DNA from: an uncultured Gemmatimonadota bacterium
Lineage (GTDB): Bacteria > JAAXHH01
Length of the DNA stretch: 64,000 bases
Assembly (NCBI GenBank): GCA_951812955.1
Contig: OX638340.1
Location: forward strand, 2,368,001-2,432,000
Reading direction: 5' to 3'
Part shown: positions 10,322 to 52,351 of the stretch, piece after piece
How positions within the stretch are numbered: position 1 is the first letter of the stretch
Layout: every line of letters begins with the position of its first letter
Made by a program: the position numbers and the translations under genes
The notes under the pieces: generated by a model
What the model was told of the DNA's origin: nothing
What the model saw: only the letters and a program-made list of their open reading frames with translations
Databases searched by the model: none

Positions 10322-10351
10322 GACAATCCCCGGTCCGCGTTCGACCCGTTC

Positions 10352-36500: not shown

Positions 36501-38214
36501 TCGACTGTCGGGCAGTATCCCTGACTCCTTCGGCGATCTGGCCAACTTGAGATATCTGGGACTTACGGACAATGCCAACTTGTCTGGCACGCTGCCCCTA
36601 TCTCTTATCGGTCTGAATCTCGATGATCTGCTGCTCGGTGGCACGATGCTGTGCGCGCCTGAGATTACAGAGATCCAGGACTGGCTGCGGGAGATACCCA
36701 ATAGCCGCGTTTCCCGTTGCGACACCATTAACCTCCGATCTGTAGCTTACCTTACGCAGGCAGTGCAGACGCTGGAGTATCCGGTTCCCCTGGTAGCTGG
36801 TGAGGATGCACTCCTTCGCGTCTTCGTCACGTCCGAAACGGATATGGACGCCTATATGCCCCTGGTGCGAGCAACTTTTTACGAAGGTAGCGCCGAGGTG
36901 CATACCGTGGACATGCCGAGCCAGGAAACGCCCATACCCACGGAGGTCGATGAGGGCGACCTTTCGTCCTCAGCCAACGCACGCATTCCCGGGTCGGTGC
37001 TGACGCCCGGACTGGAGATGGTCATCGAGATCGATCCTGAAGGCGAGTTGGACCCCGCTCTTGGCATAAACGGACGATTGCCAGCGGAAGGACGGATAGC
37101 CATCGATGTACGAGAAATGCCTCCTTTCGATCTGACGATGGTACCTTTTCTGTGGACGGAGAACCCGGACAGGTCCATCCTGGCGCGGGTGGAAGGCCTG
37201 ACTGCCGATTCCGAACTCTTTCGACTTACACGCGATATCCTGCCGGTAGGTGAGTTTTATCTCACCATTCGCGAGCCTGTATGGACTTCGGTGGAGCCAA
37301 CCCCCCACAATTTTGGATCTACCTTTCGTGAGACAGTCACTATACATGCTATGGACGGCGCCGGCGGACACTATATGGGGGTTCTCACAGGGAGCGGTAC
37401 CGGGCTGGCCAATGCTCCGGGAGTAGTGAGTGTCTCAACGCTTGATAACATGGTTATCGCCCATGAACTTGGCCACAACATGAGCCTGGGGCATGCTCCG
37501 TGTGAAATCGGCAGCAACGATCATTTTATAGACCCCGATTATCCCTATCCAGTTTCGGCAGTTGGAGTTTGGGGATACGATCTGCTCAATGAGATGCCTG
37601 TGCAACCTGATACAAAAGAAGTTATGGGCTGTGGTAGCTGGATCAGCGATTACTTCTTCACCAAGGCTATAGGCTATCGATACTATCAAGAAAACGAAAC
37701 TTTGTTCTCCGCGGCATATGAACCACCAGTTCGAGGCCTGCTGCTCTGGGGTGGCGTGAACAGCGACGGTGAAGTTTTACTGGAACCGGCCTTTGTGGTT
37801 GACGCATCACCGTCTTTGCCCGACCTGTATGGGCCGTATCTACTGTCCGGCGAGGATGATGTCGGCGGCACGCTGTTCAGCCTCTCCTTCGGCATGGCCG
37901 AGATCGCAGACGGTGATGGCGAGAGAGCCTTCGCCTTCATCATTCCGGCGAGTACTGAGTGGTCAAACCGGCTTACGCACCTCACGCTGTCAGGGCCTGA
38001 GGGTGTCGCGACACTGGGCGGTGATGGGGGGTTGGAAGAGGAGCCTGCCGCCGCACTCCTGCTGGATCCCACCACGGGCAAAGTGAGAGGCCTCCTGCGC
38101 GACTGGCCGGTGCCGGGGATTACGGCTGTTTCAGCAAGGCGTGTGTTGCCTGAGCCGGGACTGGAGGTTTTTATCAGTTCGGGGGTGCCTGCTCCCGCCG
38201 ACTGGAGGCGGTAA
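33541..38214 (+). CDS. giant surface lipoprotein: 2x Big_2 + 3x plant-type LRR arrays + C-terminal metzincin-like zinc-metalloprotease domain
   Basis: 1557 aa. Lipoprotein signal (LLGLATC) and a PPQPP linker. Two Ig-like Big_2 domains. Three arrays of 24-aa LRRs (LxxLxLxxNQLTGxIPxEIGQL), each preceded by a cap motif ALY..T.GPxWTNSTNW...P...W.GV. HELGHNMSLGH (HExxH....GH) at about 37462-37494. Confidence 0.8.
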   Translation: MSQRYLPTSKCSYRFAVYIITCVTLLGLATCGKDSPTKTVTPPQPPAPQPPTPQPPTTTQPARITITPRSASLSAIGQRIQLSATIYDNRNVQIPEAAVSWSSNDPAVATVGAQGLVTAVGNGTATITARSGNASETASVTVLQTIASIVVFPMHSTLYAIGETVQLNALASDRSLQSVADAAFTWISDKPAVATVSDQGLVTAVSKGTATITARSGNASETATVTVVSRDDTRLNREALVALYHSTNGPGWTNSTNWLSDAPLGNWHGLASFFHGEVEEVRHLNLRENNLQGKIPPEIGQLQSLVSLGLSNNQLTGNIPPEIGQLNELTSMELSNNQLSGYIPSEIGQLQKLTSMGLYNNQLTGNIPSEIGQLRKLTSMGLYNNQLTGNIPSEIGQLQELTFLGLYNNQLTGNIPTEIGQLQELTRLDLSNNQLTGNIPTEIGQLQELTELFLGYNSGLTGPLSVELIMLSNLEFFYIHNTQICIPQTSQYLAWFEGIRNRSGGLYCPAPHRDSLIALYDRTDGPNWTNSTNWKSLDPLDQWYGITVDGEGQVTGLSLENNNLNGAVPHHLSDLSNLKILNLSFNPGLTGILPASVSRLELEELELDGTQVCAPADTEFQQWLADIPQRTVTNCTDLRPDYYALAGLYFNTTGQNWTNNTNWLSDRPLNTWFGVQTNSSEEVTGLDLKENNLAGAIPSEIGQLQKLENLYLYRNQLSGSIPQEIGQLQELRFLDLSDNRLAGDLPPEIWRLQKLENLFLYGNQLSGSIPPEIGQLQKLENLFLYGNQLSGSIPQEIGQLQELRFLYLSDNRLAGDLPPEIWRLQNLRALAIRGDAYNRDSGIQLTGIIPAEVAQLENLETLNLEFNRLTGNIPPEIGDLQKLRYLRLGGNRLTGTIPSEIGKLHNLVDLILSNNRLTGNIPSNIGQLPTLVTLDLSRNELEGSIPAEIGGLQSLTQLTLSNNQLTGTIPTEFAGLGMLEVLRVSFNRLSGSIPDSFGDLANLRYLGLTDNANLSGTLPLSLIGLNLDDLLLGGTMLCAPEITEIQDWLREIPNSRVSRCDTINLRSVAYLTQAVQTLEYPVPLVAGEDALLRVFVTSETDMDAYMPLVRATFYEGSAEVHTVDMPSQETPIPTEVDEGDLSSSANARIPGSVLTPGLEMVIEIDPEGELDPALGINGRLPAEGRIAIDVREMPPFDLTMVPFLWTENPDRSILARVEGLTADSELFRLTRDILPVGEFYLTIREPVWTSVEPTPHNFGSTFRETVTIHAMDGAGGHYMGVLTGSGTGLANAPGVVSVSTLDNMVIAHELGHNMSLGHAPCEIGSNDHFIDPDYPYPVSAVGVWGYDLLNEMPVQPDTKEVMGCGSWISDYFFTKAIGYRYYQENETLFSAAYEPPVRGLLLWGGVNSDGEVLLEPAFVVDASPSLPDLYGPYLLSGEDDVGGTLFSLSFGMAEIADGDGERAFAFIIPASTEWSNRLTHLTLSGPEGVATLGGDGGLEEEPAAALLLDPTTGKVRGLLRDWPVPGITAVSARRVLPEPGLEVFISSGVPAPADWRR
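34380..34900. repeat. about seven near-identical 72-bp tandem DNA repeats (one LRR each) inside the giant gene
   Basis: Units such as CAACCAGTTGACCGGAAACATACCATCCGAAATCGGGCAATTGC... recur with more than 90% identity. Confidence 0.7.
35640..36020. repeat. second block of near-identical 72/144-bp tandem LRR-coding repeats
   Basis: CTACAGAAACTCGAAAATCTGTTCCTTTATGGCAACCAGTTGTCGGGCAGCATACC... is repeated almost exactly three times. Confidence 0.65.
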
Positions 38215-38264: not shown

Positions 38265-39332
38265 TCATTCGGTACCAATCCCCTTATCCCATGGAACATC
38301 CGACAGCCAGGGCCCGATCTGGTCCCCGTAAGCGAAGATAGCCGGCAGTCCACCCGTATGGATGAACAGCACCCGGCTACCCGCAGGGATAACGCCTGAA
38401 CGCACGTGTTCGATCAGTCCCGCCATCGTCTTGCCGGTGTAGACCGGGTCGAGGAGCAGCCCCTCCTGACGTGCCGCAAGGGCGATCGCTTCGCGCGCGA
38501 CTTCGTTGAGCCGGCCATAACCGGGCGCTAGCACGCCGTCAAACGCCATCACGTCACCCGCGTCGAACGCCTCCGGCTGTTCGATCATCGCGGCCAGTTG
38601 CTCCGCCACTTTACTCACCCGCGCCACCTGGCTGCCGGCATCGCGTCGCACGCAGATGCCGTACACGGGCACGTTGACGCCCAAGGCCCGCAGCCCTACC
38701 AGGATACCCGCGTGGGTCAGGGCGCTGCCCGTGGGACAGACCACGGCGTCGAATTCCAGCTCGAGGGACCGGGCCTGTGACAGGGTCTCCTCGGCCGCGA
38801 TGACGTATCCGAGCGCACCGATCGGAGGATGGGCGGGGGCGAGATGGATGACGTAGGGCCTGCGGCCCTCCTCTTCGAGCGATTGGGCAAGCAGGTCCAG
38901 CGCCGCGTCCGCCGCGGGCTCATCATCGCCGACCGGGAAGGAATGCAGCTTCGCGCCGAAGAGGCGGTCGAGCAATACGTTGCCAGAAGTACGGTAAAGG
39001 TTGTCCACGTCGGACACGCGCTCTTCCAGCTGGATGTGTGTCTCCATGCCAAGTCGGCGTCCGGCGGCCGCGGCCACGCGGACGTAGTTCGACTGCACCG
39101 CGCTGGTGATCAACAGGGTGTCGGCATCCCGGGACTGCGCCTCGCCCAGGGGGAATTCGATTTGGCGGACCTTGTTTCCGCCCATCACCAGTCCCGTGCA
39201 GTCGTCGCGCTTGATCCACAGCTCGATGCCGAGTTCCGCGCCGAGGCGTGGCGCGGCCTCGAGCGGCGTGGGCGCGTGACATAGCCGGACCCGGGGGAAC
39301 TTGTCGATGGCCTTGGAAAGTCGACTGGGCAT
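38265..39332 (-). CDS. D-cysteine desulfhydrase / ACC-deaminase-family PLP enzyme
   Basis: N-terminal TPLE...L.IKRDD...GGNKVR (PLP-Lys in NK) and fold-type II PLP architecture. 355 aa. Confidence 0.75.
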   Translation of the reverse strand: MPSRLSKAIDKFPRVRLCHAPTPLEAAPRLGAELGIELWIKRDDCTGLVMGGNKVRQIEFPLGEAQSRDADTLLITSAVQSNYVRVAAAAGRRLGMETHIQLEERVSDVDNLYRTSGNVLLDRLFGAKLHSFPVGDDEPAADAALDLLAQSLEEEGRRPYVIHLAPAHPPIGALGYVIAAEETLSQARSLELEFDAVVCPTGSALTHAGILVGLRALGVNVPVYGICVRRDAGSQVARVSKVAEQLAAMIEQPEAFDAGDVMAFDGVLAPGYGRLNEVAREAIALAARQEGLLLDPVYTGKTMAGLIEHVRSGVIPAGSRVLFIHTGGLPAIFAYGDQIGPWLSDVPWDKGIGTE

Positions 39333-39483: not shown

Positions 39484-41025
39484 TCAGGCGGGTTGCCCGG
39501 ACGAACCGGTTTCCCACGCGGACTTGAGTTCGTGGACGGTCAGCGATACGATGCGCGCGCCGCCGCTGTCCGACCGCAACGCCAGAGCGTGATTGGCCGC
39601 TGCCGGCAGGAAGCAGAATGACATGGACAATTCCCCACCGTTACCGAAGATCTCCAGGGAGGTGCGGTCGACCAGGAGCTGGAGCCGCACGCGCCGCCCG
39701 ATGGTCCTCAGGTCCGCGCTCCTTCCCATGCACGAAAGGGTCTGCCTTGCCGCGTCGTATGCCACATCGTGGCCCTGCACTTCGATGGTGAATCCCTTTC
39801 CTTCGCCGATTGCGTTGTCGGCTTGGCGCCCTTCAGCACCGCACACCTCGATCTCCATGCACACGTCGAACAGGTCGCCCTCTTCCGCAAGCACCAGCCG
39901 GCTTTCCGAGTCGCGCAGGCTCGTTACCGCGTAACTGCCGATCTCACCCCTGCCGTATTGCCGTCGAAACTGTTCGGCCGCCATTGCAGCCAGGTCACCG
40001 CCCGGCCAGTTGCGAGTCCCTGTATGAAGCAGTTCGATCTCCCTCACCGGCTCGCGGCACAGCCGTATACCCACCGGCAACGTCCTGAGCGTCAGCTCCA
40101 CCGGGAAGGTCATCTGCTGGTTGAAGGGCATGGCCGGGTATTTGCCGTCCCGCATCCACGAGATCTGGATCCGCCGTCCGTCCTCCGACGGGAGGTCGCT
40201 CCAGGTCTGGGCGGCATATCCGTTGGCGCCCTCTTCCGCCTGGAGGACGTCCGTTTCCGGCGTGAAGGTCTTGCCGTCGAAGCGCCCGAGCAGGTAACCG
40301 CCGCTCGCGCCCCAGAATACCCAACGCGTGTCCGAGGGATCTCCGTCCACCGGCAGTTCGAAGAAATCTGGACATTCAGACACGCCGGGCAGGGTCAGGT
40401 CCTGCAGACGCGTCCACGACCTGAGGTCCGGGGACGAGAACAGGGCGTAGTCGTTGCCGTCCATGAACAGGGTCATGATCCATCGCGCGGTCGGTTCGTA
40501 CCAGACCACCTTCGGATCCCGGTTCTCCGAACGGATATGCCCGATAACGGGATTGCCCGCATATTTCATCCACGTCCGGCCGCGATCATTGCTGTGGGCT
40601 ATACATTGTATACACCGCTTACCGGGGAACATCCTTTCGCCCCCCGCCGTGTAGAAGGCGATCAGGGGCGGATCATCTCCGTCCTGGAACCCGCCGGTAT
40701 TTTGATGGTCCACCGCCGCGGAACCCGACCACATCCATCCCGTGTCGTCCACGTCCAGCGCGGCGATATGGAGCTGCTTCCAGTGGACGAGGTCGGTGCT
40801 GACCGCGTGGCCCCACGTCGTGCGCCCGTGCACCATACTGCCCGGCGTGTGCTGGAAGTAAAGATGGTACTCCCCGTCGAAATAAACCAGTCCGTTGGGA
40901 TCGTTGATCCAGTGCTGCTTCGCCGTGAAGTGAAACTGGGGGCGGAGAGTTTCCCGGTAGAGGGTGTCGTTGGGCATCGCAGCGCCATTAGGTTTCGCTG
41001 ATTGGCCGGTCAGGATTCGCTCCAC
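39484..41025 (-). CDS. glycoside hydrolase family 32 (beta-fructofuranosidase/levanase/inulinase-like)
   Basis: HWINDPNG (WMNDPNG block), FRDP (RDP) and SECPD (EC) catalytic motifs, and the five-bladed beta-propeller length. An alternative start is the M at 40977. Confidence 0.8.
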   Translation of the reverse strand: MERILTGQSAKPNGAAMPNDTLYRETLRPQFHFTAKQHWINDPNGLVYFDGEYHLYFQHTPGSMVHGRTTWGHAVSTDLVHWKQLHIAALDVDDTGWMWSGSAAVDHQNTGGFQDGDDPPLIAFYTAGGERMFPGKRCIQCIAHSNDRGRTWMKYAGNPVIGHIRSENRDPKVVWYEPTARWIMTLFMDGNDYALFSSPDLRSWTRLQDLTLPGVSECPDFFELPVDGDPSDTRWVFWGASGGYLLGRFDGKTFTPETDVLQAEEGANGYAAQTWSDLPSEDGRRIQISWMRDGKYPAMPFNQQMTFPVELTLRTLPVGIRLCREPVREIELLHTGTRNWPGGDLAAMAAEQFRRQYGRGEIGSYAVTSLRDSESRLVLAEEGDLFDVCMEIEVCGAEGRQADNAIGEGKGFTIEVQGHDVAYDAARQTLSCMGRSADLRTIGRRVRLQLLVDRTSLEIFGNGGELSMSFCFLPAAANHALALRSDSGGARIVSLTVHELKSAWETGSSGQPA

Positions 41026-41047
41026 CGTTCGCTTTTGACGCCGCGAA

Positions 41048-41596
41048 TCACACGTTCGTCTCGATCAGCGTAACGCTGTGGGGATCCAGCAGGGTATAGT
41101 CCACGACTTCGAATCGGTTGCCGTCGACGTCGGTGAGCAAAAGCCGCGTATCCGAGGCCCAGTGGGTGTTCTCGTGGCCGCGGATGACGAACTCCCGTCT
41201 GCCCCGGTCGGTCATGACGTTCCAGTAGGTGACGCCGTACTCCATCTGAATGGAGTCAATGCGCTGTATCGTGGCGCGCAGGTACCGGTGGTCCAGCTCT
41301 TCCTCGATGACCTTGCGGGAATCTTCGTCCAGGTCGTCCATGTCCCGGATGAAGGCCACTTCCTCGTTCTTTATGTCCAGGAGCGACACGTACCGGTCGG
41401 TGTGGGCCAGGGGCGAGGCCTGGACCGGCCGGACGCGTATATAGGACCGCTCGGCGCCGACCGTCATGCGCACCGTGTTCGTCGGCGCCCGGAAGACCCG
41501 TATCTCGTGAGCCTGATAGGGTTCGACGGGGGCGTTCTCGATGCCCGTCTCGAATTCAAAGCTGTCCGGCGCGTCTACGCCTGGTTCATCCGGCAT
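41048..41596 (-). CDS. hypothetical protein, co-operonic with the ABC exporter pair (possibly DUF1854-like)
   Basis: 182 aa, 14 bp downstream of the second ABC gene on the same strand. The DUF1854 assignment is from memory and unverified. Confidence 0.45.
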   Translation of the reverse strand: MPDEPGVDAPDSFEFETGIENAPVEPYQAHEIRVFRAPTNTVRMTVGAERSYIRVRPVQASPLAHTDRYVSLLDIKNEEVAFIRDMDDLDEDSRKVIEEELDHRYLRATIQRIDSIQMEYGVTYWNVMTDRGRREFVIRGHENTHWASDTRLLLTDVDGNRFEVVDYTLLDPHSVTLIETNV

Positions 41597-41610
41597 TTCT
41601 ATCTCCCCGC

Positions 41611-43899
41611 TCAGGATGTATGTCCGTTGGCGCCGCTGTGCGGGTCGTTCCGGCCCCCGCCCACGGCCATGACGGCGGTGCTGGCACGCTGGGTTTCAAC
41701 CATTCGGTAGAAATGACCCTTCATGCCCAGCAGCTCCGCATGAGTGCCCGTCTCCACGATCCGTCCCGCGTCCAGCACCACCAGACGGTCCGCTCGGCGA
41801 AGGGTCGACAGCCGGTGGGCGATGGCAAAAGTCGTCCGGCCCTTCACGAGATTGGCGATGGCCTCCTGGATGAGCTTCTCCGTGTGGGTGTCCACCGAGG
41901 AGGTGGCCTCGTCCAGGATCAGGATGCGGGGATCGTGGATGATAGCCCGCGCGATGGCGATCCGCTGCTTTTCGCCGCCCGACAGTTCCTTGCCGTTCTC
42001 GCCGATCTGCGTATCGTATCCGTCGGGCTTCGCGCAGATGAAGTCGTGGGCGTTCGCCGTCCGCGCCGCCCGCATGATCTGCTCGAAGGAGGCGTCCGGA
42101 CTGCTGTACCGGATGTTCTCCGCGACGGATCCGCTGAAGAAGTAGGAGTCCTGCAACACCACGCCGATCTGCCTTCGAAGGTCCTTCAGGCTGATGTCCC
42201 GGATCGGCACGCCGTCGATCTTCAGGCCGCCGTCATCGATATCGTAAAACCGGCACAGCAGGTTGGTCATCGTCGTCTTGCCGGAACCGGACTTGCCTAC
42301 CAGACCGATCATCTCGCCCGGCTGCACGTGGAGGTTGATGTCGTGGAGTACGGGCTTGCCGGCCTCGTAAGCAAAGACCACGTCGCTGAATTTCACCTCG
42401 CCCTTTACGTCATTCATCTCTACCGGGACGTCCCGATCCTCGGTTTCCGCCGGCGTGTCTACGATCTCGAAGACCTTTTCCGCGCCGCTCATGGCACGGC
42501 TCGACCAGGTGTTCAGTTCGCCGAACCACCGAAGGGGCTCGTAGAGCATCCAGAGATAGGCGATGAACATCATGAGTGCGCCGAGGGTGAACGAGTCGTC
42601 GATTATGGCAGAACCCCCGTAGTACCAGACCAGGATCAGGCCAGACGAGGTAAGCATGCTGACCGTGCTGAAGAACACGGCCGCCTCCTTCTCGCTTTCG
42701 TAATCTCCCCGGAAGACGCCTTCGTTGCTGCTGCGGAACCGGCGCATCTCACGTTTTTCCTGGACGAAGGTCTTGACGACGCGCACGGAGGAGAGCATCT
42801 CGCCCGCGAGCCCTACGAGTTTGCCCCACCGGTAGTACTTCGTCCGGAAAGCCCGGATCAGCCGGATCCAGAAGAACCATCCTCCCGTTACGAGCAGAGG
42901 TATGGGAATGAGCACGAGAAGCGTGAGTTGCCAGCTGGTTATAAAAAGCAGGACCAGGATGCCCACCATGAGCAGGAGGTTGGTAATGATGTAGGGCACT
43001 CCGTCGACCAGGAACCACATCATGCTTTCCGTGTCGTTGGACACCCGCGAAATCAGGGATCCGACCTGGCGCTTGTTGTAGAATTTCATGCTCAGGCGGG
43101 AAAGGTTCTCGTACAGGTCTTCGCGGACGGACACGATCACGCGGCCGCCGAGCCATACGGAAAGCCGGTCCCTGAAGATCTCGAGGACGTAGGATCCCAG
43201 GCGGACGAACGCGAACGCGCCGATGAGGTAGTAGAGGAACGTCAAGGCGTCCTCGCGCGCGTCTACGTCCGCGACCAGGACGTCGTCGATGATGTAACGC
43301 ATAATGTAGGGCGGGCCGAGTTCCGCCAGGGTGAAGAGGAGCGACAGGAATACCATCATCGCGATGCGGCCCTTGAAGGGCAGGGCATACTTGGCGATCC
43401 GTCCCATCATCGCGAGCCGGTTGGTGCACGCCGAACAGATCCCGTTCGGCTCAGGCAGGAGGCGGTCGCATTTGCCGCACCTTGTCCGGTCTACTTCTCC
43501 CTGCATGTCGACCGGTTCGTCCTTGATGAGCTGGTCGATGCCCCGGGCGATCCGAGCGAACTTGGCGCGCTGGGTCGCGGTGTAGCGGAGGACCTCGATC
43601 TCTTCGTTTCCGATTACCACGTTGATTCGGCCCGAGCCTACCAGTTCCTCCACTGCGGCGCTTTTGGCGTCGGAAAACTCGATGGAAGCGTCCCCGTTTC
43701 CCATGCTTGCGCCGTTGGAATCGAACCGCATCAACCGCTGGTCCGTCACCACGAGCCAGCGTTCCTCGAACCGCAGTTCTTCCGTCAGGTCGGTCGCCGC
43801 CGCGATGCGGATGGTTTCCCCTTCCCGCAGCGCCTCCCGGCAACGGTCGGCCAGCGCGTCGGGCATCCGCTCTTCGTAGCTGGTTGTGCTATCCGTCAT
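41611..43899 (-). CDS. ABC exporter, fused permease-ATPase, with a roughly 180-aa N-terminal PH-like + Cx2C..Cx2C zinc-ribbon extension
   Basis: Type I exporter TMD (6 TM helices). NBD with Walker A GKSGSGKTT, signature LSGGEKQR and Walker B ILILDEAT. N-terminal WLVVTDQRLM and RCGKCDRLLPEPNGICSAC. Confidence 0.85.
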   Translation of the reverse strand: MTDSTTSYEERMPDALADRCREALREGETIRIAAATDLTEELRFEERWLVVTDQRLMRFDSNGASMGNGDASIEFSDAKSAAVEELVGSGRINVVIGNEEIEVLRYTATQRAKFARIARGIDQLIKDEPVDMQGEVDRTRCGKCDRLLPEPNGICSACTNRLAMMGRIAKYALPFKGRIAMMVFLSLLFTLAELGPPYIMRYIIDDVLVADVDAREDALTFLYYLIGAFAFVRLGSYVLEIFRDRLSVWLGGRVIVSVREDLYENLSRLSMKFYNKRQVGSLISRVSNDTESMMWFLVDGVPYIITNLLLMVGILVLLFITSWQLTLLVLIPIPLLVTGGWFFWIRLIRAFRTKYYRWGKLVGLAGEMLSSVRVVKTFVQEKREMRRFRSSNEGVFRGDYESEKEAAVFFSTVSMLTSSGLILVWYYGGSAIIDDSFTLGALMMFIAYLWMLYEPLRWFGELNTWSSRAMSGAEKVFEIVDTPAETEDRDVPVEMNDVKGEVKFSDVVFAYEAGKPVLHDINLHVQPGEMIGLVGKSGSGKTTMTNLLCRFYDIDDGGLKIDGVPIRDISLKDLRRQIGVVLQDSYFFSGSVAENIRYSSPDASFEQIMRAARTANAHDFICAKPDGYDTQIGENGKELSGGEKQRIAIARAIIHDPRILILDEATSSVDTHTEKLIQEAIANLVKGRTTFAIAHRLSTLRRADRLVVLDAGRIVETGTHAELLGMKGHFYRMVETQRASTAVMAVGGGRNDPHSGANGHTS

Positions 43900-43974
43900 G
43901 CCTCAGTGTCCTTGCCTATTCCGACGGCCGGCTTCGTTAAAGTCCTCACGGACCGGCCGGTTTTGATCAAACTT

Positions 43975-44048
43975 CGGTCAGGCCCCGGTCAAGCCTCACG
44001 GATCTTCCCGGCCGGCACGTGAGCGGTCAGGCCCCGGTCAAGCCTCGT
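43975..44048. repeat. about 24-bp direct repeat CGGTCAGGCCCCGGTCAAGCCTC x2 between the two ABC genes
   Basis: Copies at about 43975-43999 and 44024-44048. Confidence 0.45.
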
Positions 44049-44059
44049 TCAGGCCCTGG

Positions 44060-46324
44060 TCAGGCAACCTCCATGATCTCGGAGGTGGCTTTCTGCAGCC
44101 GCACCAGATGATGGAAATGACCGCGGTTTGCGATCAGTTCCTCGTGGGTGCCTTCCTCGACGACCTTTCCCTGCTCCAGCACCACGAGCCTGTCGGCGTC
44201 CCGCAGCGTGGAAAGGCGGTGGGCGATGGCGATCGTGGTGCGTCCCTTGATCAACCGGGCAATGGCTTCCTGGAGCTGTTTCTCCGTCTCGGCGTCCACC
44301 GAGGAGGTCGCCTCGTCCAGGATCAGGATGCGGGGGTCGTGGAGGATCGCCCGGGCGATCGAGACGCGCTGCTTCTCACCGCCCGACAGTCCGTTGCCCT
44401 TGTCCCCGAGTATCGTGTCGTATCCATCGGGCTTTGCGAGGATGAAGTTGTGGGCATTTGCCGCCCGGCCCGCCGCCATGATATCCTCAAAACTCGCGGC
44501 GGGTTTTCCATAGGCGATATTCTCCCGGATCGTCCCGTTGAAGAGGATCGGTTCCTGCAGGACGACGCCGATATGGCCACGCAGATCCTCGAGCCGGATG
44601 TCCCGCAGGTCCACGCCGTCCAGGGTGATCGAACCGTAATTGACATCGTAGAACCGGCAGATGAGATTGATGGTCGTACTCTTCCCGGCGCCCGACTTGC
44701 CAACCAGCCCGATCATCTCGCCGGGCCGGATCCGGAGATTGACGTCCCGGAGCACCGGAAGGGCTGCGTCATAGCCGAAGGTCACGTTATTGAATACGAT
44801 CTCGCCCTGCGTGCGCGGCATCGGCTTCGCGGTCCGGTCCTCATAATTCTCCGGTTCCATGTCGATGAGCTCGAATACCCGTTCGGCGGCGCTCATCGCC
44901 CGGGTCATCCAGCTGTTGACCCGGCCGAGCCACCGTAGCGGTCCGTAAAACATCTGCAGGTAGAAGTAGAACAACATCAGTTCGCCCGGGGTAAGTTCCT
45001 GGCCGAGCACCTGCCTGCCCCCCACCAGCCAGACCACGATGAAGCCCAGGAAGTTCAGCAGGCCCATGGTGGAGAAGTAGTAGATCCACTGCTTCTCGGT
45101 CCAGTATTCCAGGGCGAACATGTCCCGCGCGTTGCGCCTGAACCGGTCGACTTCCCTGTTTTCCTGTGCGAAGGCCTTGACGATGCGAATCCCCGAAAGG
45201 GACTCCTGGATGTGGGTGAAGAACCCTTCCCATTGGCGCCACATGCGTGTGTAATAGGACCGCAGTCTTCGGTACAGGACCCGGCCCCATATGACGATGA
45301 ACGGCACGGGAATGAGAATGTAAAGCGTGAGCACCCAGTTGGTATACAACAGCATACCGATGATCCCGAGCGTCGTCAGCCAGCGGAGGACGAGGAATGG
45401 CAGGCCGTCCACCAGGAAGCTGCGCACGTTCCGGGTGTCCCGCGTAACCCGCGAAAGCAGGCCGCCCGTCTTTTGCTTGTCGTGGAATCCCAGCGACAGG
45501 TATTCGACGTGGTGGTACACCTGGGCCCGGATATCCGCCACAACCCGGGCGCCTACCCAGGCCGTCAGCCAGCCGTTCGCCATCTCGCCCAGCCAGCGGA
45601 TGACAAGCAGTCCGGCCATGGCCGCGACGAACCAGAACAGAAGCTCCTTGTCCCCGTCCGGGAAGGCGTCGTCGATGATGAGCTGCGTGATCTTGGGCGG
45701 GAGGAGTTCCGCCACACTGAGTACCGCGAAGAGCCCCACCATGGTTATGGCCTTGGCCCGATGGGCGCCAAGGTAGGAGCAGATCCGCTTGAGCATGCCC
45801 CACTTGCTGACACAGGCCGGACACAGCCCGTCCTTCGTGGGCAGGCGACGGCCGCAAGTCTCGCAGACTACCCGCGGGAACTCGGTCTTGACCTGGAACG
45901 GCTTTTCCTCGATGTGCTGCTCGATACCGCGCTGCGCCTCGTTGAAGACGTCGACCCGGCTCTGGGAATACCGGATGAGCGGGATGGTGTCTTTGGCCGT
46001 GGAAACTTCCAGGCAGGAACCGCCGACCAGGGGTTCCACCGCCACCCTGGTCAGGTCCGCCAGCGGGACGGCGATGTCGTCGCCGGCGCCGTTGAGTTCC
46101 AGGGTCATGACGCGGCGGTCGGTTACGATGAGCCAGGAAGGCTCGAATCGGCCTTTCGCATCCATGTCCGATTCCAGGGTGATGCGGATTTCTTCGTTGG
46201 GTTCCAGAACGGGGTAGAGTTTTTTCTGAATCTGATCCGGCAGGGGATCGGCCAGGCGCATAGAACTTCCTTTGGGCCTATGCTGCGGGGAGTGGCTGCG
46301 TGCGGACTGAACGGAACCGTTCAT
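44060..46324 (-). CDS. ABC exporter, fused permease-ATPase, paralog with the same N-terminal PH-like + zinc-ribbon extension
   Basis: Walker A GKSGAGKST, signature LSGGEKQR and Walker B ILILDEAT. N-terminal WLIVTDRRVM and CETCGRRLPTKDGLCPAC. Confidence 0.85.
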   Translation of the reverse strand: MNGSVQSARSHSPQHRPKGSSMRLADPLPDQIQKKLYPVLEPNEEIRITLESDMDAKGRFEPSWLIVTDRRVMTLELNGAGDDIAVPLADLTRVAVEPLVGGSCLEVSTAKDTIPLIRYSQSRVDVFNEAQRGIEQHIEEKPFQVKTEFPRVVCETCGRRLPTKDGLCPACVSKWGMLKRICSYLGAHRAKAITMVGLFAVLSVAELLPPKITQLIIDDAFPDGDKELLFWFVAAMAGLLVIRWLGEMANGWLTAWVGARVVADIRAQVYHHVEYLSLGFHDKQKTGGLLSRVTRDTRNVRSFLVDGLPFLVLRWLTTLGIIGMLLYTNWVLTLYILIPVPFIVIWGRVLYRRLRSYYTRMWRQWEGFFTHIQESLSGIRIVKAFAQENREVDRFRRNARDMFALEYWTEKQWIYYFSTMGLLNFLGFIVVWLVGGRQVLGQELTPGELMLFYFYLQMFYGPLRWLGRVNSWMTRAMSAAERVFELIDMEPENYEDRTAKPMPRTQGEIVFNNVTFGYDAALPVLRDVNLRIRPGEMIGLVGKSGAGKSTTINLICRFYDVNYGSITLDGVDLRDIRLEDLRGHIGVVLQEPILFNGTIRENIAYGKPAASFEDIMAAGRAANAHNFILAKPDGYDTILGDKGNGLSGGEKQRVSIARAILHDPRILILDEATSSVDAETEKQLQEAIARLIKGRTTIAIAHRLSTLRDADRLVVLEQGKVVEEGTHEELIANRGHFHHLVRLQKATSEIMEVA

Positions 46325-46528
46325 ATATCAATAAAGTGGATGCACCCTTAAGCCATCATTGCCGCGAATGCCGTTGAAGCATTCATCGGGAGTGCGTTAA
46401 ACCCCCGTCCGAACCAGTTTGTGAAAGTACATTTTCGAGCACCAAAGTCAAGGAGAAGCTTCGGCATGAACGCGTTTATTTCCTGTATATTCCTTGATTT
46501 ACGTACGCCTCCGCTTACATTGCGTGAG

Positions 46529-46592
46529 GTCGTTCCGAACCTGAATTTTTACCGCATGTGATCGTCCCGAACCCGTATCCTTACCGTGTGTG
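46529..46592. repeat. about 32-bp tandem direct repeat (GTYSYCCGAACCYGWATYYTTACCGYRTGTG x2) in the divergent promoter region
   Basis: Lies between the ABC operon start and the PfkB kinase gene. Confidence 0.4.
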
Positions 46593-46701
46593 GCCATTCG
46601 GTACCCGTATACCCACAACCTGAAATCACCCTGAACGCCAGATCTCATCCGAGTTCTCACGGGGCCGATCATTCCCCGGCCCTGTCACGACAGCCTGACT
46701 C

Positions 46702-47763
46702 ATGATGACCCCGCACCGATTGGAAAATCTGTTGTCCCGCTTCGCCGGACTGTCCGTCCTGGTCGTCGGCGACTTCTTCCTCGACAAGTACCTGGTCATC
46801 GATCCGGATCTCGATGAGCCGTCCCTGGAGACCGGGCTGCACGCGCACCAGATAGTGGACCGCCGGTGCATGCCAGGCGCAGCGGGTACGGTCACGTCCA
46901 ACCTGCACGCCCTGGGCGTCGGGAACATCCATGCCCTCGGCGTCACGGGCGACGACGGGGAAGGATACGAACTCAGGCAGGGGCTGGCGGCGATGGATGT
47001 GCGGCTGGAGGGACTGATCGTATCCCCGGAACGATTCACGCCCACCTACATCAAGCCCATGTACCGCGAGCAGGGCGTAGAGCGGGAATCGAACCGGATC
47101 GACCTGCAGAACCGGACGTCCACGCCGGGTGCGCTGGAAGACCGGATCATCGAAAACCTGCGAGACATGGCGCCCGTGATGGATGGGCTGGTCGTACTGG
47201 ACCAGGTGGGACAGCGCAACACCGGGGTCGTCACGGACCGGGTCCGGGAAGCGATCTGCGACCTGGGCAGGACCCAACCGGAAAAGGTCATCCTGGCGGA
47301 TTCCCGCGAACGCATCGGCGAGTTCCGTCATGTGATTCGCAAGGGGAACCGAAGCGAAATCCACCGTGCCGCGCCGGACAGGTCGGACAGGTCGGAAAGA
47401 ACGGGCAGAACGGACAGATCGCATGCGGCCGGATGGGGCCAGGCGCTTTTCGAACGCGGCCTGGACGCGGGCGAAGGAACTTACAGGCCGGTTTTCGTCA
47501 CCCTGGGCGAGGACGGCTTGCTAGTGATCGATGACGACGGCTGCCGTCATTTGCCGGGCATCACGGTTCCCGGGTCCGTGGACACGGTCGGTGCGGGAGA
47601 CAGCGTCACCGCCGGGATCGTTTCCGCGCTCGCCGCCGGCGCGACCCTTGACGAGGCTGGCTTGGTGGGAAACCTGGCGGCTTCCGTCACCGTCCGGCAA
47701 CTTGGGGTCACCGGAACGGCGTCGCCGGGGCAGCTGTTGGAAGCTTTGAAAGCGCTAGGTTGA
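46702..47763 (+). CDS. PfkB-family sugar kinase (RfaE/HldE kinase-domain-like)
   Basis: N-terminal VLVVGDFFLDKY, a GAAG.V..N. region and the C-terminal DTVGAGD anion-hole motif. Contains an Arg/Ser/Asp-rich low-complexity insert (RSDRSERTGRTDRS). Confidence 0.65.
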   Translation: MMTPHRLENLLSRFAGLSVLVVGDFFLDKYLVIDPDLDEPSLETGLHAHQIVDRRCMPGAAGTVTSNLHALGVGNIHALGVTGDDGEGYELRQGLAAMDVRLEGLIVSPERFTPTYIKPMYREQGVERESNRIDLQNRTSTPGALEDRIIENLRDMAPVMDGLVVLDQVGQRNTGVVTDRVREAICDLGRTQPEKVILADSRERIGEFRHVIRKGNRSEIHRAAPDRSDRSERTGRTDRSHAAGWGQALFERGLDAGEGTYRPVFVTLGEDGLLVIDDDGCRHLPGITVPGSVDTVGAGDSVTAGIVSALAAGATLDEAGLVGNLAASVTVRQLGVTGTASPGQLLEALKALG

Positions 47764-47797: not shown

Positions 47798-50700
47798 TTA
47801 CTTCGCTCCGGCCTTCTCACGCGTACGCCTGCCACTCAGATAGGCCTTCAGCTTCGGCGGAAAATCCCGCTTGACCAGTTCCTGCCGCAACGCCCACTTT
47901 TCTTCGTCCGACACCGGAGACGCCTCCCTGATATCACCGCCCTCCATGATCAGGATCGGTTCGCCGTCCCGGTAGAGGATCCGGTTGTTGGTGATGCCGG
48001 GAATGCGCCGCCCGGGCGTAATGATCCCGACCAGATTGAGCGGGTCGGCCGCGCTGATGGCGACGAGCGTGCCCTGCTTCTCCTTCCGCCGGATACTTCT
48101 CAAAAGGGTGACGGCCTCGCCCAGGGCGTACTGCTCGCCCCAGACGCCGTTCACGAACCGGCCGCCGCGGATCTCTCCCCTTGCTTCCATCCGCCTCAGT
48201 ACCCGTACCAGGTCCCTCCACGGCGGCGAGGTGTTTTCCCGTTCCGTGAGCCGCCTGAACACCACGCCGTACCTGGCCAGGGCGACGCGGGCATAGGCCT
48301 CGAGATCCTCCTCCGGGTTGCCGTCCTCCGGTGTCCTGGCAGTCAGCCCCCACCGTCCCGCCGTCGACAGGTCGAAGGGATTCCTGCGTTCCCGTCCCCG
48401 CCTGGACTCCCTGTGGCGCGTCGGCGCCAGCAGGGCCCTGAGCCCCGCGAAACTGTCGGAGGTCGCCATCCCCGCCGAGACCAGTTCCGCCACGGCTTCC
48501 TCGGCGTGGGTACGCAGGATCCCGGCCTGCGCGACGATGTCGTCGAAGAACACAGCGCCTTGCCGGGTCATGACGTCCAGTGCCGTCTTCGCGTAGGTGG
48601 ACAGCGAAAGATCCTCGTCGCCGGTCACGCCGCTCAGGGACATCCACAGCGACCGGTTCATGCGGTCCACGATGGCGATGGGCGTCGTTCGGATCGGGCC
48701 GGCCGTCTTCCCGTTCTCGCCGTTCGATTTATGGGGACGAAGCCGTCCCCACGCGTACTTGCCGGAAAGACACAGGTTGTCGAGCCAGACATAATCGTAG
48801 TCGGTAACGCGGGAAGGCAGGATCTCGCTCTCCCAGGCCGCGGCCGGCGCCTCCACGCCTTCGAGCATGCGCAGCACGGCGGTCACGGCGTCGGCCCCCT
48901 TCAACCGGGTGTCTGGCGCCAGGTGATGCCAGGTGAAAAGGAACTGCATGAAGTCGGCAGGTGAAACAGGCTGGATTTCGCGGCGCAGCTTCGTGATCGT
49001 GAAGCGATGGATCCGGGCGAGAAGCCGGCGCTCGCACCATTCCAGCCCGTCCGCGGCCGGCGAAAACTGTCCTCTGAAGACAAATCCCTCGTTCTCGAGC
49101 ACGGAAAGTGCCTTTTCGATCTTCCCGACCGGCAGATCAATGGAATCGGCCAAAGCAGCAGCCGTAACCGGGCCGAGTGTCTCCAGTCTTCCGCGCACCA
49201 GTTCCACCAGGGCGGATTCTTCCGTCGCGGATGCTCCACCCGCGGATGCTCCACCCGCGGGTTGAAAACTCTTTTCCAGGTTGCCCCTCACTTCGGCCGG
49301 GATTTCCTCCTCCGGCTCGAACCTTCCCTGCGGGTGCACCTGCTCGAAGTGAATGCGTCGCTCAAGGGGCGCCCACAATCGCCGGCCTCCACGGGTGATG
49401 AGCGTGGCGGCCCGGCGGTCGCCTTCCAGCTCGGCGTAGTAGTCCGTCCAACTCCCGTACTGATCCCCCTTCTTTCCCTCTTCCTCCGTCACGTACCCCG
49501 CGAGCACCAGAGCGTCGTGGAGTTCGTCGGGACTCCGCACCTCGGGCCAGGCGTCGCCGCGGACGGTGTCGATGGCCTCCGGGTCCAGGCGTCCCAGGTC
49601 CCCCGCTACGGCCGGGTCGAGCCAGCGGCGGTTCCGAACGGCGTTGGTCCGCCGCTCCTCGAGCGGCGCGTCGTCCAGGAAGGCGTACGGACGGGCGTTG
49701 AGAATCTCCTCCGCCATGGGCGAGGGCTCGCGGAGGTCCCGCGCGTGCACGTTCATTTCCCCTGCCTTCATCGTCTTCAGCACGGACTCCAGCGTCTCGA
49801 TGTCCATGGCCTCGTGCAGGCAGTCTTCGATGGTCTGGCTGACCAGGGGATGGTCCGGCACTTCCCGGTCTCCCGCGATATTCTCGAGGCACGCGATCTG
49901 GTCGGGGAAGATCTGGGCGATCAGGTCTTCGGACACGGACCGCTGTATCTGCGGCGGCACCCGGTCCCCGCCCCTGCGCCGCAACACGGCCAGGGCGATC
50001 GACGCGTTCCACCGCCAGCGCACCTCGAACATGGGCGCGTCGAGCAGGGCCTGGACCAGGACTTCGCGTACCGAAGCGGCGTTGAGGTATTTGAAAACGT
50101 CGTCGAGGGGAAAGCTGTGGGTGGCGCCCAGGGACAAAATGATGGCATCCTCGTTCGCCGCGGCCTGCAGCTCGAAGTTGAACGTGCGGCAGAACCGCTT
50201 GCGCAGGGCAAGGCCCCATGCCCGGTTTACCCGGCTGCCGAAGGGACTGTGGAGCACGAGGTGCATGTCGCCGGCCTCGTCGAAAAACCGCTCGGCCACC
50301 AGGTCCTTCTGGGAGGGTATCACGCCGAGTGCAGCCTTGGCAGTGCCCAGGTACTCCGCGATCTGCGTCGCCGCCACGTGGGAGATGCCCGCGGACTCCA
50401 TCAGCCATTCCTCGGCCTCCCGCTTCCATTCCGCGTCGAGCTTTCTTCCGCTATCCCGTCCGTTTACGGCATCCGATCCGTCGTTGTTCAACGGTCCGTT
50501 TTCGGCGCCCGATCCGTCGTCAGTGTTCAGCGGTCCGTTTTCGGCGCCCGATCCGTCGTCAGTGTTCAGCGGTCCGTTCCCGATGTCCATCCGGCTCGCA
50601 ACTTCCTCTCTCAACCGCGACAGGGAAGCGGATAGTTCGGCCGTCCTCCCCGGCGCTTCGCCGAACCAGAAGGGCATCGTGGGCGGCATGCCCTGGGCGT

Positions 50701-52351
50701 CCTCCACCCGGATCTTGCCCTTCTCCACGCGCAGGATGCGCCACGAGTTGTTGCCCAGTTGCACGATGTCCCCGGCCGTGCTCTCGATGGCGAAGTCCTC
50801 GTTCAGCGTACCGATGAAAGTCTCCGTCGGCTCCATGATCACGTCGTAGTCGAACTGGTCCGGGATCGTTCCGCCCGACATCAGGGCGTTGATCCGGGCC
50901 CCTCCGCGGCCCTTGACCGCTCCGTTCATCAGGTCACGCTGGATGTAGGCGTGCTTGCGCCCACGACGCGGGGTATAGCCCTCGGACAACATGGCCACGA
51001 CGCCGTCGAATTCCTCCCGGGACAGGGCGCGGTAGGGATAGGCCTTCCGCACCAGGTGGTACAGGTCGTCCTCCTGGAAGTCGCAGTTGGCCACCTCCGC
51101 GATGATCTGCTGGGCCAGCACGTCCAGCGGCTTTTCGGGGATGATGATGCGGTCGAGTTCTCCCCGCCGCACCGAATCCATGATCGCGGCCGCCTCCACC
51201 AGTTCGTCGCGCGTCAGGGGGAACAGGCGCCCTCGCGGCGTGCCCGTGATCGTGTGGCCGGAGCGGCCCACGCGCTGGATGAGCGTCGCGATGGCCTTGG
51301 GCGAACCGATCTGGCACACCAGGTCGACCGACCCGATGTCGATCCCGAGTTCCAGGGAGGCCGTGGCCACGAGGGCCTTCAGCGTGCCGGCCTTGAGCCG
51401 CTGTTCGGCGTCGTGGCGATGCTCCTTCGACATGCTGCCGTGGTGGGAGGTGACGTTCTCCACGCCCAACCGGTCGCTCAGGTGGCGGGCCAGCCGTTCC
51501 GACATGCTCCGCGTCGTGACGAAGACCAGCGTGGTCTCGTGCCGGAGAATGAGCTCCTCTAGGCGTTCATACACCTCCTCCCACACTTCGTTGGACATGA
51601 CCGCGCCGAGCGGGGAGCGTGGCACCTCGATCTTGAGCTCGAGTTTCCGCCGATGGCCGGTGTTGAGGATCTTGCATCCCTCTCCCTTCGCGTAGCCCGC
51701 GCCGGTGAGGAAGTGGGCGATCCGGTCGATGGGTTTCTGTGTTGCCGATATGCCGATGCGCGTAAGTGGACCGGAGGTAAGCCGTTCCAGGCGCTCCACA
51801 GAAAGGGCCAGGTGCGATCCCCGTTTGTTGCCCACCAGCGCGTGGATTTCGTCGATGATGAGGGTGTGCACATTCGGCAGGATGCGCCGGCCCCCCGCGC
51901 TCGTGAGCAGCAGGTACAGGCTTTCCGGCGTCGTTACCAAAATGTGGGGCGGGTGCTTCGTCATGGCGGCGCGCTCGCTCGTGGGCGTATCGCCCGTGCG
52001 GACCGCCACGCGGATGGGCACGTCCGGCCTCTCGCGCTCCTTCAGGATCGCCCGGATGCCCTTCAGGGGGACCTGCAAGTTGGCGTGGATGTCGTTGCTG
52101 AGGGCCTTCAGGGGCGATACGTAGACGATCTGGGTGCCCTCGGGCAGCGAACCGTACTGGCCCTGTCGGACCAGGTCGTCGATGGAAGACAGGAAGGCGG
52201 CAAGCGTCTTGCCGGAACCTGTGGGTGCGGCGATCAGCGCGTGCTTCTGCTGCTTGATGACCGGCCAGGCACGCTTCTGGATGTCGGACGGTTCCGCGAA
52301 CCGTTCCTCGAACCAGGCAGCCACGGCGGGATGGAAGAGGTCGTTGGTCAT
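47798..52351 (-). CDS. lhr: Lhr-family large ATP-dependent helicase (superfamily 2)
   Basis: Q-motif/Walker [10 protein letters not shown] and DEIH (DExH) motifs, helicase C, and a long Lhr-specific C-terminal extension. 1517 aa. Contains a 13-aa x3 repeat insert. Confidence 0.85.
50462..50578. repeat. 39-bp tandem repeat x3 inside lhr (encodes [13 protein letters not shown] x3)
   Basis: Two exact copies at 50501-50578 preceded by a diverged copy. Confidence 0.6.

Follow-up and report, generated by a model that had tools for sequence, protein, structure and literature searches.

A putative ABC exporter operon with duplicated half-transporters, predicted PH-like and zinc-ribbon modules and a DUF1854 protein in an uncultured Gemmatimonadota bacterium

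Two curated NCBIfam equivalogs, the cyanophycin metabolism-associated ABC transporter NF052233 (766 positions, cut-off 880 bits) and the cyanophycin metabolism-associated DUF1854 family protein NF052234 (cut-off 150 bits), describe a gene pair known from Ralstonia wenshanensis p56D2 and Cupriavidus basilensis (RR42_RS04420). In this pair, an ATP-binding cassette (ABC) half-transporter with a PH-like domain (WLVVT), a Cx2C ribbon, a six-helix transmembrane domain (TMD) and a nucleotide-binding domain (NBD) is followed by a downstream DUF1854 gene. To our knowledge, no member of this ABC/DUF1854 family has been characterised biochemically or structurally. In the one paper on DUF1854 that a literature search returned, Acidovorax and Cupriavidus show cofitness of DUF1854 with cphA/cphA' and the ABC transporter; from the cofitness with cphA, the authors proposed that an amino-acid polymer is exported, and they suggested that the product ends in the cell wall (Price et al., bioRxiv 10.1101/072470). 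No export process is known for cyanophycin (Sharon et al., PMC9974463). In this study, we analyzed an operon of the same architecture on a stretch of 64,000 nucleotides (nt) from an uncultured Gemmatimonadota bacterium (assembly GCA_951812955.1, contig OX638340.1, positions 2,368,001 to 2,432,000), hereafter called the window. The architecture itself is not new, being already curated as the NCBIfam pair and discussed by Price et al. (bioRxiv 10.1101/072470). However, the single ABC gene of the described homodimer is represented here by a conserved duplicated pair, the association with cphA is absent from the window and from 80 related loci, and the DUF1854 protein differs from NF052234 in having a DVDGNRFE motif and, at its N-terminus, an acidic tail of some 30 aa. 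By sequence comparison, the window operon is placed in a diverged, duplicated and cphA-unlinked sister subfamily, which lies outside the equivalogs and is distributed in uncultured phyla.

Extra cytoplasmic domains fused ahead of an ABCB-type TMD are also found in other transporters. In the peptidase-containing ABC transporters (PCATs) and HlyB, an N-terminal cytoplasmic C39 or C39-like domain recruits the cargo. The window proteins share this position of the extra domain but not its fold, as no Pfam match to Peptidase_C39 was obtained from them at E <= 0.1 and a PH-like fold is predicted in its place; a leader-peptide gene, a membrane-fusion partner and an outer-membrane partner are all missing from the operon. 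IrtAB, a mycobacterial siderophore importer, is likewise a type IV transporter with an N-terminal cytoplasmic domain, namely a flavin adenine dinucleotide-binding reductase domain on IrtA only, whereas the predicted PH-like domain and zinc ribbon are present on both window half-transporters. The closest solved bacterial half-transporters, TM287/288 and TmrAB (PDB 3qf4, 5mkk, 6raf; E about 1e-110 over TMD and NBD), are also encoded by tandem paralogous genes, there forming one transporter, but they possess neither the PH/zinc-ribbon module nor a DUF1854 partner. A precedent for PH domains in export is given by DdE and DdF, two PH-fold accessory proteins encoded beside an ABC exporter and required for export of the leaderless bacteriocin EntDD14 (enterocin DD14; PMC8657885). 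DdE and DdF are separate, membrane-anchored proteins of the YdbS/YdbT type (bPH_2), whereas the PH domain in the window is fused to the transporter, followed by a zinc ribbon and only weakly matched by bPH_3, and no bacteriocin gene is present in the window.

The proteins encoded in the window were identified by searches against Pfam, NCBIfam, Rfam and PDB, and by alignments of related loci. Three successive open reading frames (ORFs) form the operon in the transcription order ABC1, ABC2 and DUF1854 protein, and all were found on the minus strand where a preliminary description of this DNA had put them; the operon features described below are on this strand as well. ABC1 (44060..46261) encodes a half-transporter of 733 aa in the public gene call, with Pfam matches to ABC_membrane (4e-50) and ABC_tran (8e-34). 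ABC2 (41611..43899) encodes a half-transporter of 762 aa, for which an identical protein is on record. The two proteins share 45% identity from end to end, the first 170-180 residues included, and both have ABC_membrane followed by ABC_tran, so that their description as paralogous half-transporters in permease-ATPase order holds. The trailing ORF of 182 aa (41048..41596; PF08909) begins 14 nt past the stop codon of ABC2, exactly the gap reported before, with GGGGAG in front of its start. A one-genome-per-species scan returned 426 loci encoding a relative with the DVDGNRFE motif, and the best 80 of them were fetched (individual related loci are denoted L001, L002 and so on). These 80 loci come from uncultured metagenome-assembled genomes (MAGs) labelled Latescibacterota, Gemmatimonadota and Poribacteria, instead of the Actinobacteria and Chloroflexi in which conservation of the operon was to be assessed. 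Most of them possess two ABC genes with the N-terminal module followed by DUF1854, the latter lying directly downstream of the ABC gene as in the window.

NF052233 is the best NCBIfam model for both ABC proteins and matches them from end to end, including the N-terminal module, with 617.5 bits for ABC1 (model 12-747) and 611.2 bits for ABC2 (model 9-746). Both scores are below the cut-off of the equivalog, and the next models are of MsbA type with 450-480 bits. The DUF1854 protein of the window reaches 97.6 bits with NF052234, which is also below the cut-off, and other members of the subfamily score 84-104 bits. As a positive control, the proteins encoded on R. wenshanensis plasmid p56D2 pass both thresholds with 1460 bits and 234.2 bits, respectively. 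In the p56D2 locus, two cphA genes are divergent from one ABC gene encoding 768 aa and a DUF1854 gene encoding 156 aa (KOL96_03340/03345). Over about 730 aa, the Ralstonia ABC protein shares 35-38% identity with ABC1 and ABC2, and it has the signature WLVVT...CPTC...CPQC; the arrangement of NF052233, a PH-like region and a Cx2C...Cx2C ribbon ahead of the TMD, is present in the window proteins too. Searches by tblastn with the two Ralstonia CphA proteins detected no cphA in the 64-kb window, where a single weak match (15479-16015) falls in the Mur-ligase domain of a MurD-like gene (15158-16825) located about 25 kb from the operon, and none in the 80 best related loci with 10-kb flanks.

The N-terminal modules of ABC1 and ABC2 are predicted to adopt a PH-like superfold, a seven-stranded beta sandwich with a C-terminal capping helix. 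In the AlphaFold2 model of ABC2 residues 1-178 (predicted local distance difference test, pLDDT, 84.9; predicted template modelling score, pTM, 0.71), a short helix (14-23) is followed by seven beta strands (30-106), a long C-terminal helix (108-125), the Cys4 knuckles (pLDDT about 75), and a helix (161-175) running into the first transmembrane segment. The modelled domain corresponds to 43525..43860 in ABC2, and its counterpart in ABC1 was mapped by alignment to 45911..46237. The best Pfam match is bPH_3 (PF14470) with 20.0 bits for ABC1 (E = 1e-3) and 15.5 bits for ABC2; both are under the gathering threshold of 23, so the bacterial PH identity suspected earlier is not confirmed at the level of Pfam, and a precomputed PF14470 match is present in some homologues. 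Every sequence match in PDB starts at residue 157 or later, in agreement with the proposal that the module is absent from canonical exporters, and no meaningful match was found when the first 160 residues alone were compared to PDB sequences. A total of 379 representatives of the module family (clusters at 50% identity) were collected at E <= 1e-3 among 1.84 billion proteins, and the module lies at or near the N-terminus in the ABC-type matches listed.

The core motifs WLIVTDRRVM and WLVVTDQRLM and the cysteine motifs CETCGRRLPTKDGLCPAC and CGKCDRLLPEPNGICSAC quoted in the preliminary description are present in the two proteins. In an alignment of 47 homologues, the residues E28, D37, W48, T52, G88, F114, C141, C144, C155, C158 and R167 (ABC2 numbering) are invariant, and the W and T in the WLxVT core vary hardly at all in a larger homologue set. 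The four ribbon cysteines are invariant in 102/102 proteins, comprising 45 of the ABC1 clade, 44 of the ABC2 clade, 12 single-copy Poribacteria proteins and one from Ralstonia. The Cys4 ribbon is located at 45812..45865 in ABC1 (CETC...CPAC; Pfam DZR_2 at E = 0.003, below cut-off) and at 43426..43479 in ABC2 (C141, C144, C155, C158), and it may bind zinc judging from this cysteine pattern. It had been cautioned that the extensions could be mis-called upstream sequence or share no conserved fold. Neither concern is borne out: more than 100 homologues show protein-level conservation of the extensions, which have invariant residues and a confidently predicted fold, and belong to the 762-aa and 733-aa forms in the public gene calls. 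The N-terminal modules of ABC1 and ABC2 are 32% identical, compared with 45% for the whole proteins, which suggests specialisation of the two modules.

The first in-frame ATG of ABC1 lies at 46324 and would give a long form of 754 aa (44060-46324). The start is most likely M22 of this form (46261), because the ATG at 46261 is preceded by the invariant Shine-Dalgarno site AAAGGAAG, the public gene call holds the 733-aa product, and the ATG at 46324 is lost in L016-L018. This upstream ATG sits in a conserved non-coding leader, and the nucleotides around it are kept in those three loci. The 754-aa sequence has no record for this genome, and exact look-ups of the proteins P0001 and P0195 returned no record. 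Translation from 46324, or of a small precursor-peptide ORF 5' of ABC1, was ruled out on the basis of the nucleotide-level conservation lacking a codon pattern, the loss of the ATG in L016-L018 and the 733-aa call.

Downstream of the N-terminal modules, both proteins have the domains of ABCB-type half-transporters with the type IV fold (Pfam ABC_membrane and ABC_tran, E from 1e-33 to 1e-50). The TMD (PF00664) occupies 44936..45733 in ABC1 (residues 198-463 in the numbering of the 754-aa form) and 42535..43362 in ABC2 (residues 180-455, with the first hydrophobic segments from about residue 173). The NBD (PF00005) is located at 44303..44752 in ABC1 and 41899..42348 in ABC2; Walker A and B, Q-loop, signature (LSGGE in ABC1) and H-loop are intact in both. 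The closest solved relatives by sequence are ABCB1, TmrAB, Sav1866, TM287/288 and MsbA. The catalytic Glu, the H-loop His and LSGGE are kept in all 45 ABC1-clade and all 44 ABC2-clade proteins, except that 16 of the latter have LAGGE, a Ser-to-Ala change at the second signature position. No degenerate ATP site of the TM287/288 type was found in either clade.

The 182-aa protein, which was to be tested as a DUF1854 member, matches PF08909 with 135.8 bits (E = 1e-39; residues 52-179 against model 1-128 of 130; gathering threshold 26.8). It is acidic and soluble, with an isoelectric point of 4.7 in the window and 4.6-5.8 across the family, and has no hydrophobic segment; it is therefore expected to be cytoplasmic. 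The AlphaFold2 model (pLDDT 81) has a disordered acidic tail (residues 1-19 below pLDDT 50) and two similar halves, each with a sheet of six strands and a helix at its end (strands 32-83 and helix 91-104; strands 107-164 and helix 172-181). No solved relative was found by sequence search, and Foldseek against PDB gave nothing at E <= 1e-3, the weak top matches being tandem polo boxes. The predicted fold can best be viewed as a tandem of two sheet-plus-helix modules that lack a close known relative and are possibly PH-like. Homology between the two halves was considered and set aside, since the hhalign probability of at most 12% is not significant.

Several arrangements connect DUF1854 to the PH domain. 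The metagenomic protein P0274 (913 aa) is a natural fusion of the PH module, TMD, NBD and a C-terminal DUF1854, thus placing DUF1854 on the cytoplasmic side beside the NBD. It bears out the ABC-DUF1854 fusions mentioned by Price et al. (bioRxiv 10.1101/072470) and the Pfam curators. In L084, the gene of a stand-alone PH homologue of 135 aa (9582-9989) precedes a DUF1854 gene (10001-10531) by 12 nt, and L085 is arranged likewise. Compared with the ABC PH domain profile, this PH protein gives E = 4e-26; it carries no zinc ribbon, TMD or NBD. The two genes therefore co-occur without a transporter, which suggests that the PH domain and DUF1854 may form a unit able to exist apart from the ABC protein.

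The order ABC1-ABC2-DUF1854 is strictly kept in more than 40 divergent loci. In a crude neighbor-joining distance tree rooted with Ralstonia, the deepest split separates first-position from second-position ABC genes, and does so across divergent lineages, so that the duplication is regarded as ancient and the gene order as fixed; the single copies from Poribacteria group among the second-position genes. In most relatives the two ABC genes overlap (ATGA stop/start) or lie less than 40 nt apart, which fits co-translation of heterodimer partners. Given the ancient duplication and the conserved tandem order with often overlapping stop and start codons, a heterodimer of ABC1 and ABC2 is plausible. 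Not all copies of these genes are intact in the public assemblies. In L002-L004 and L009-L012, some of which are chromosome-level MAGs, one ABC gene was not recovered as a single intact ORF, and for an ABC gene on a 3.83-Mb contig the record holds only some 250 aa from the N-terminus (P0051, 257 aa), which suggests frameshifts, assembly errors or pseudogenes.

Taken together, we hold it fairly probable that the three-gene operon encodes an ABCB-type exporter in which the PH/zinc-ribbon modules and the DUF1854 protein serve as a recruitment or gating platform. The exporter would most likely be a heterodimer of the two anciently duplicated half-transporters. In each half, a cytoplasmic PH-like domain would lead through the Cys4 zinc ribbon into an elbow helix and the first transmembrane helix. 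The DUF1854 protein would act as a cytoplasmic accessory subunit, probably docked on the PH modules or on the ATPase side, and together with the modules it might present a substrate made in the cytoplasm or license its ATP-driven export. The regulated gating or substrate/partner recognition put forward for the module in the preliminary description is likewise to be taken as a hypothesis. Since the system is not linked to cphA here, the substrate need not be a cyanophycin-like polymer. Several observations weigh against this exporter model. Both the heterodimer and the PH-DUF1854 contact are deductions, as are zinc binding, the docking of DUF1854, the transport direction and the kind of substrate, and the gene content of the window gives no pointer to a substrate. 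Homology between DUF1854 and the ABC PH domain was tried and rejected as not significant (hhalign probability at most 12%). Orphan DUF1854 genes with neither a PH nor an ABC neighbour occur in L082 and L089, so that DUF1854 is not confined to transporter operons. Moreover, relatives labelled Poribacteria have a single ABC gene, and both ATP sites are of consensus type, which is also compatible with two separate homodimers. Many obligate heterodimeric exporters of bacteria, including TM287/288 and TmrAB, have one degenerate ATP site.

Upstream of ABC1, conservation is seen at the nucleotide level. A leader of about 85 nt (46263..46347), directly upstream of the ABC1 start, consists in order of the invariant GTGCATCC, TTGATATATGA, TCCCCGCAGCA and the Shine-Dalgarno site CCCAAAGGAAG, and was recovered by nhmmer from the window and 17 loci (18 sequences, E = 1e-17 to 1e-26); no further copies were detected by nhmmer elsewhere in the window or loci. 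A scan of 40800-46900 against Rfam at E <= 1 gave no family. RNA structure in the leader was examined as a candidate and is not convincing, as RNAalifold yielded -2.67 kcal/mol with one compensatory pair. The suggested pairing of GCAUCC with the Shine-Dalgarno GGAAGU involves invariant positions and thus offers no covariation to judge by, and GCAUCC is a possible anti-Shine-Dalgarno element. Further upstream, a TTGACT, a 16-nt spacer and TACTTT (46424..46451), read from the sequence and preserved when the upstream regions of the window and L001-L018 are aligned, may act as a promoter. A consensus scan reported no sigma-70-type promoter, the TTGACT block being below its threshold, and no terminator on the minus strand. 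An AT-rich block is found at about 46473-46504.

The spacer between ABC1 and ABC2 contains a direct repeat, as described before, although its exact length is 23 nt and not 24 bp (43975-43997 and 44024-44046). It is a partial tandem duplication with a period of 49 nt, for which 0.01 matches are expected by chance, and no copies other than these two were found in the window. One copy is present in the closest relative, L001, and none in the others. A role as regulatory site was rejected, as the duplication is restricted to the window and the spacer is at most 40 nt or an ATGA overlap in most relatives. The repeat is probably a recent, lineage-specific tandem duplication, and probably not functional because it has no conserved counterpart in the relatives.

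The genes surrounding the operon differ from lineage to lineage. In the window lineage, the order is Lhr, an rfaE-like pfkB kinase, the operon, GH32 and a pyridoxal phosphate (PLP)-dependent enzyme, and this synteny is kept in L001-L017. The divergent kinase gene (46702-47763, plus strand) resembles rfaE domain I (heptose-7-phosphate kinase-like; 118 bits, cut-off 345) and is found beside the operon in L001-L017 and L021. The GH32 glycoside hydrolase gene (39484-41025, minus strand) encodes a product without an obvious signal peptide; it begins 22-70 nt after DUF1854 and is followed by the gene of the PLP-dependent enzyme (38265-39332, minus strand). Co-transcription of GH32 with the operon is possible in the window; in close relatives other genes lie between DUF1854 and GH32 (8 kb in L001), and the linkage is not conserved. 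In other lineages (several loci of L023-L080), a MurD-like Mur ligase gene and a divergent gene of the 3'-phosphoadenosine 5'-phosphosulfate (PAPS) reductase family are found a short distance upstream, and the operon is followed by a gene that was judged by eye from its sequence to be putatively MurB-like. A further lineage has a protein of unknown function with Yip1, HlyD and MacB-type genes near the operon. The distant loci L086 and L087 carry a single ABC gene with DUF1854 next to an rfaE-like kinase gene (284 bits) and gmhA (L086 8468-9981), downstream of Bac_transf, a chain-length-determinant-like gene, Poly_export and a PseB-like dehydratase gene; the surroundings in L086 resemble an exopolysaccharide cluster, and a link to envelope glycan synthesis is possible. 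In L088, a DegT sugar aminotransferase gene is found downstream of the ABC/DUF1854 pair. No functional neighbour is consistent across all lineages, since the PAPS reductase, MurD-like, MurB-like, HlyD/MacB, GH32, PLP enzyme and rfaE-like kinase genes vary.

Other genes in the window were noted from their translations. The Lhr-like gene (47798-52351, minus strand), identified as a helicase by eye, includes a tandem repeat of about 13 aa in three copies, the last one degenerate (about 50470-50600, minus strand). A gene at 33541-38214 (plus strand) encodes a protein of 1557 aa with Big_2-like repeats near the N-terminus, two long leucine-rich-repeat blocks, and a C-terminal region with HELGHNxxxGH, a zinc-metalloprotease-like motif. 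Eukaryote-like repeat proteins of this kind have been reported in host-associated bacteria.

Four other explanations of the operon were weighed against the exporter model. A cyanophycin-like (Asp/Arg) polymer could be the exported substrate, with the synthetase encoded elsewhere in the genome. The best-matching models are indeed NF052233 and NF052234, the cofitness with cphA/cphA' (Price et al., bioRxiv 10.1101/072470) points in this direction, and the acidic PH domains and DUF1854 would suit an Arg-rich ligand. We nevertheless consider this unlikely, as the scores stay far under equivalog cut-offs that the Ralstonia control passes, cphA is absent by tblastn from the window and from all 80 flanked loci, and the neighbours differ between lineages. 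Equally doubtful in our estimate is a flippase or exporter of envelope precursors like MsbA or PglK, handling a lipid-linked glycan or another building block, in which the PH domain would be a sensor of membrane or precursor and DUF1854 a regulator. This would account for the rfaE-like kinase as conserved divergent neighbour in the window lineage, the glycan-related genes around the L086/L087 and L088 systems, the flanking MurD-like and MurB-like genes in another lineage, and the MsbA-type models ranking next to NF052233; a cell-wall destination was also suggested for the betaproteobacterial system (Price et al., bioRxiv 10.1101/072470). However, these neighbour associations are lineage-specific and weak, none is common to all groups, the window kinase scores far below its cut-off, similarity to MsbA is generic for ABCB exporters, and the window operon has no glycosyltransferase or polymerase genes at its flanks.

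The remaining two explanations are less likely than those based on cyanophycin or envelope precursors. ABC1 and ABC2 might be independent homodimeric efflux pumps for drugs or peptides, with the PH/zinc-ribbon modules and DUF1854 being regulatory only. All consensus catalytic residues are indeed present in both NBDs, and single-gene homodimeric versions exist in Ralstonia, Poribacteria and L086; the strict gene order in more than 40 divergent loci, the frequent translational coupling and the stronger divergence of the N-terminal modules make such a pair of pumps improbable. Finally, an importer on the exporter fold, as in IrtAB, YbtPQ and Rv1819c, would use the N-terminal domains and DUF1854 to receive or process the cargo. 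In IrtAB, a heterodimeric importer of type IV, one subunit carries a cytoplasmic domain at its N-terminus, and this class needs no gene for a solute-binding protein. Import appears very improbable here, since no receptor, siderophore or vitamin gene or reductase domain is found in the locus, and the only genetic data of the family, from two betaproteobacteria, point to export (Price et al., bioRxiv 10.1101/072470).

Starting from the favoured model of an exporter with a PH/zinc-ribbon and DUF1854 platform, a wider proposal can be made for the whole DVDGNRFE subfamily (about 426 species representatives), which we offer tentatively as a possibility. The subfamily would be a cphA-independent exporter in which the two diverged PH/zinc-ribbon modules and the two-lobed DUF1854 constitute a dedicated cytoplasmic platform for cargo recognition, and the PH-DUF1854 pair would be the ancestral functional unit, capable of existing without the transporter. 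If this is true, it would represent a new class of ABC export gated by accessory domains, with a logic like that of the PCAT C39 domains or the carbohydrate-binding module of Wzt, and uncultured Latescibacterota, Gemmatimonadota and Poribacteria would use it to export a polymer or an envelope precursor.

The results extend the PH/zinc-ribbon/DUF1854 machinery well beyond the betaproteobacteria containing cphA, and indicate that it also exists in an anciently duplicated and probably heterodimeric form. The PH domain and DUF1854 appear to travel together even without a transporter, which makes a PH-DUF1854 complex a candidate module for cargo recognition or licensing. The results also advise caution against carrying the label 'cyanophycin' over to the DVDGNRFE subfamily. 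The substrate, once identified, could reveal a pathway for an envelope or storage polymer in poorly known and largely uncultured phyla.

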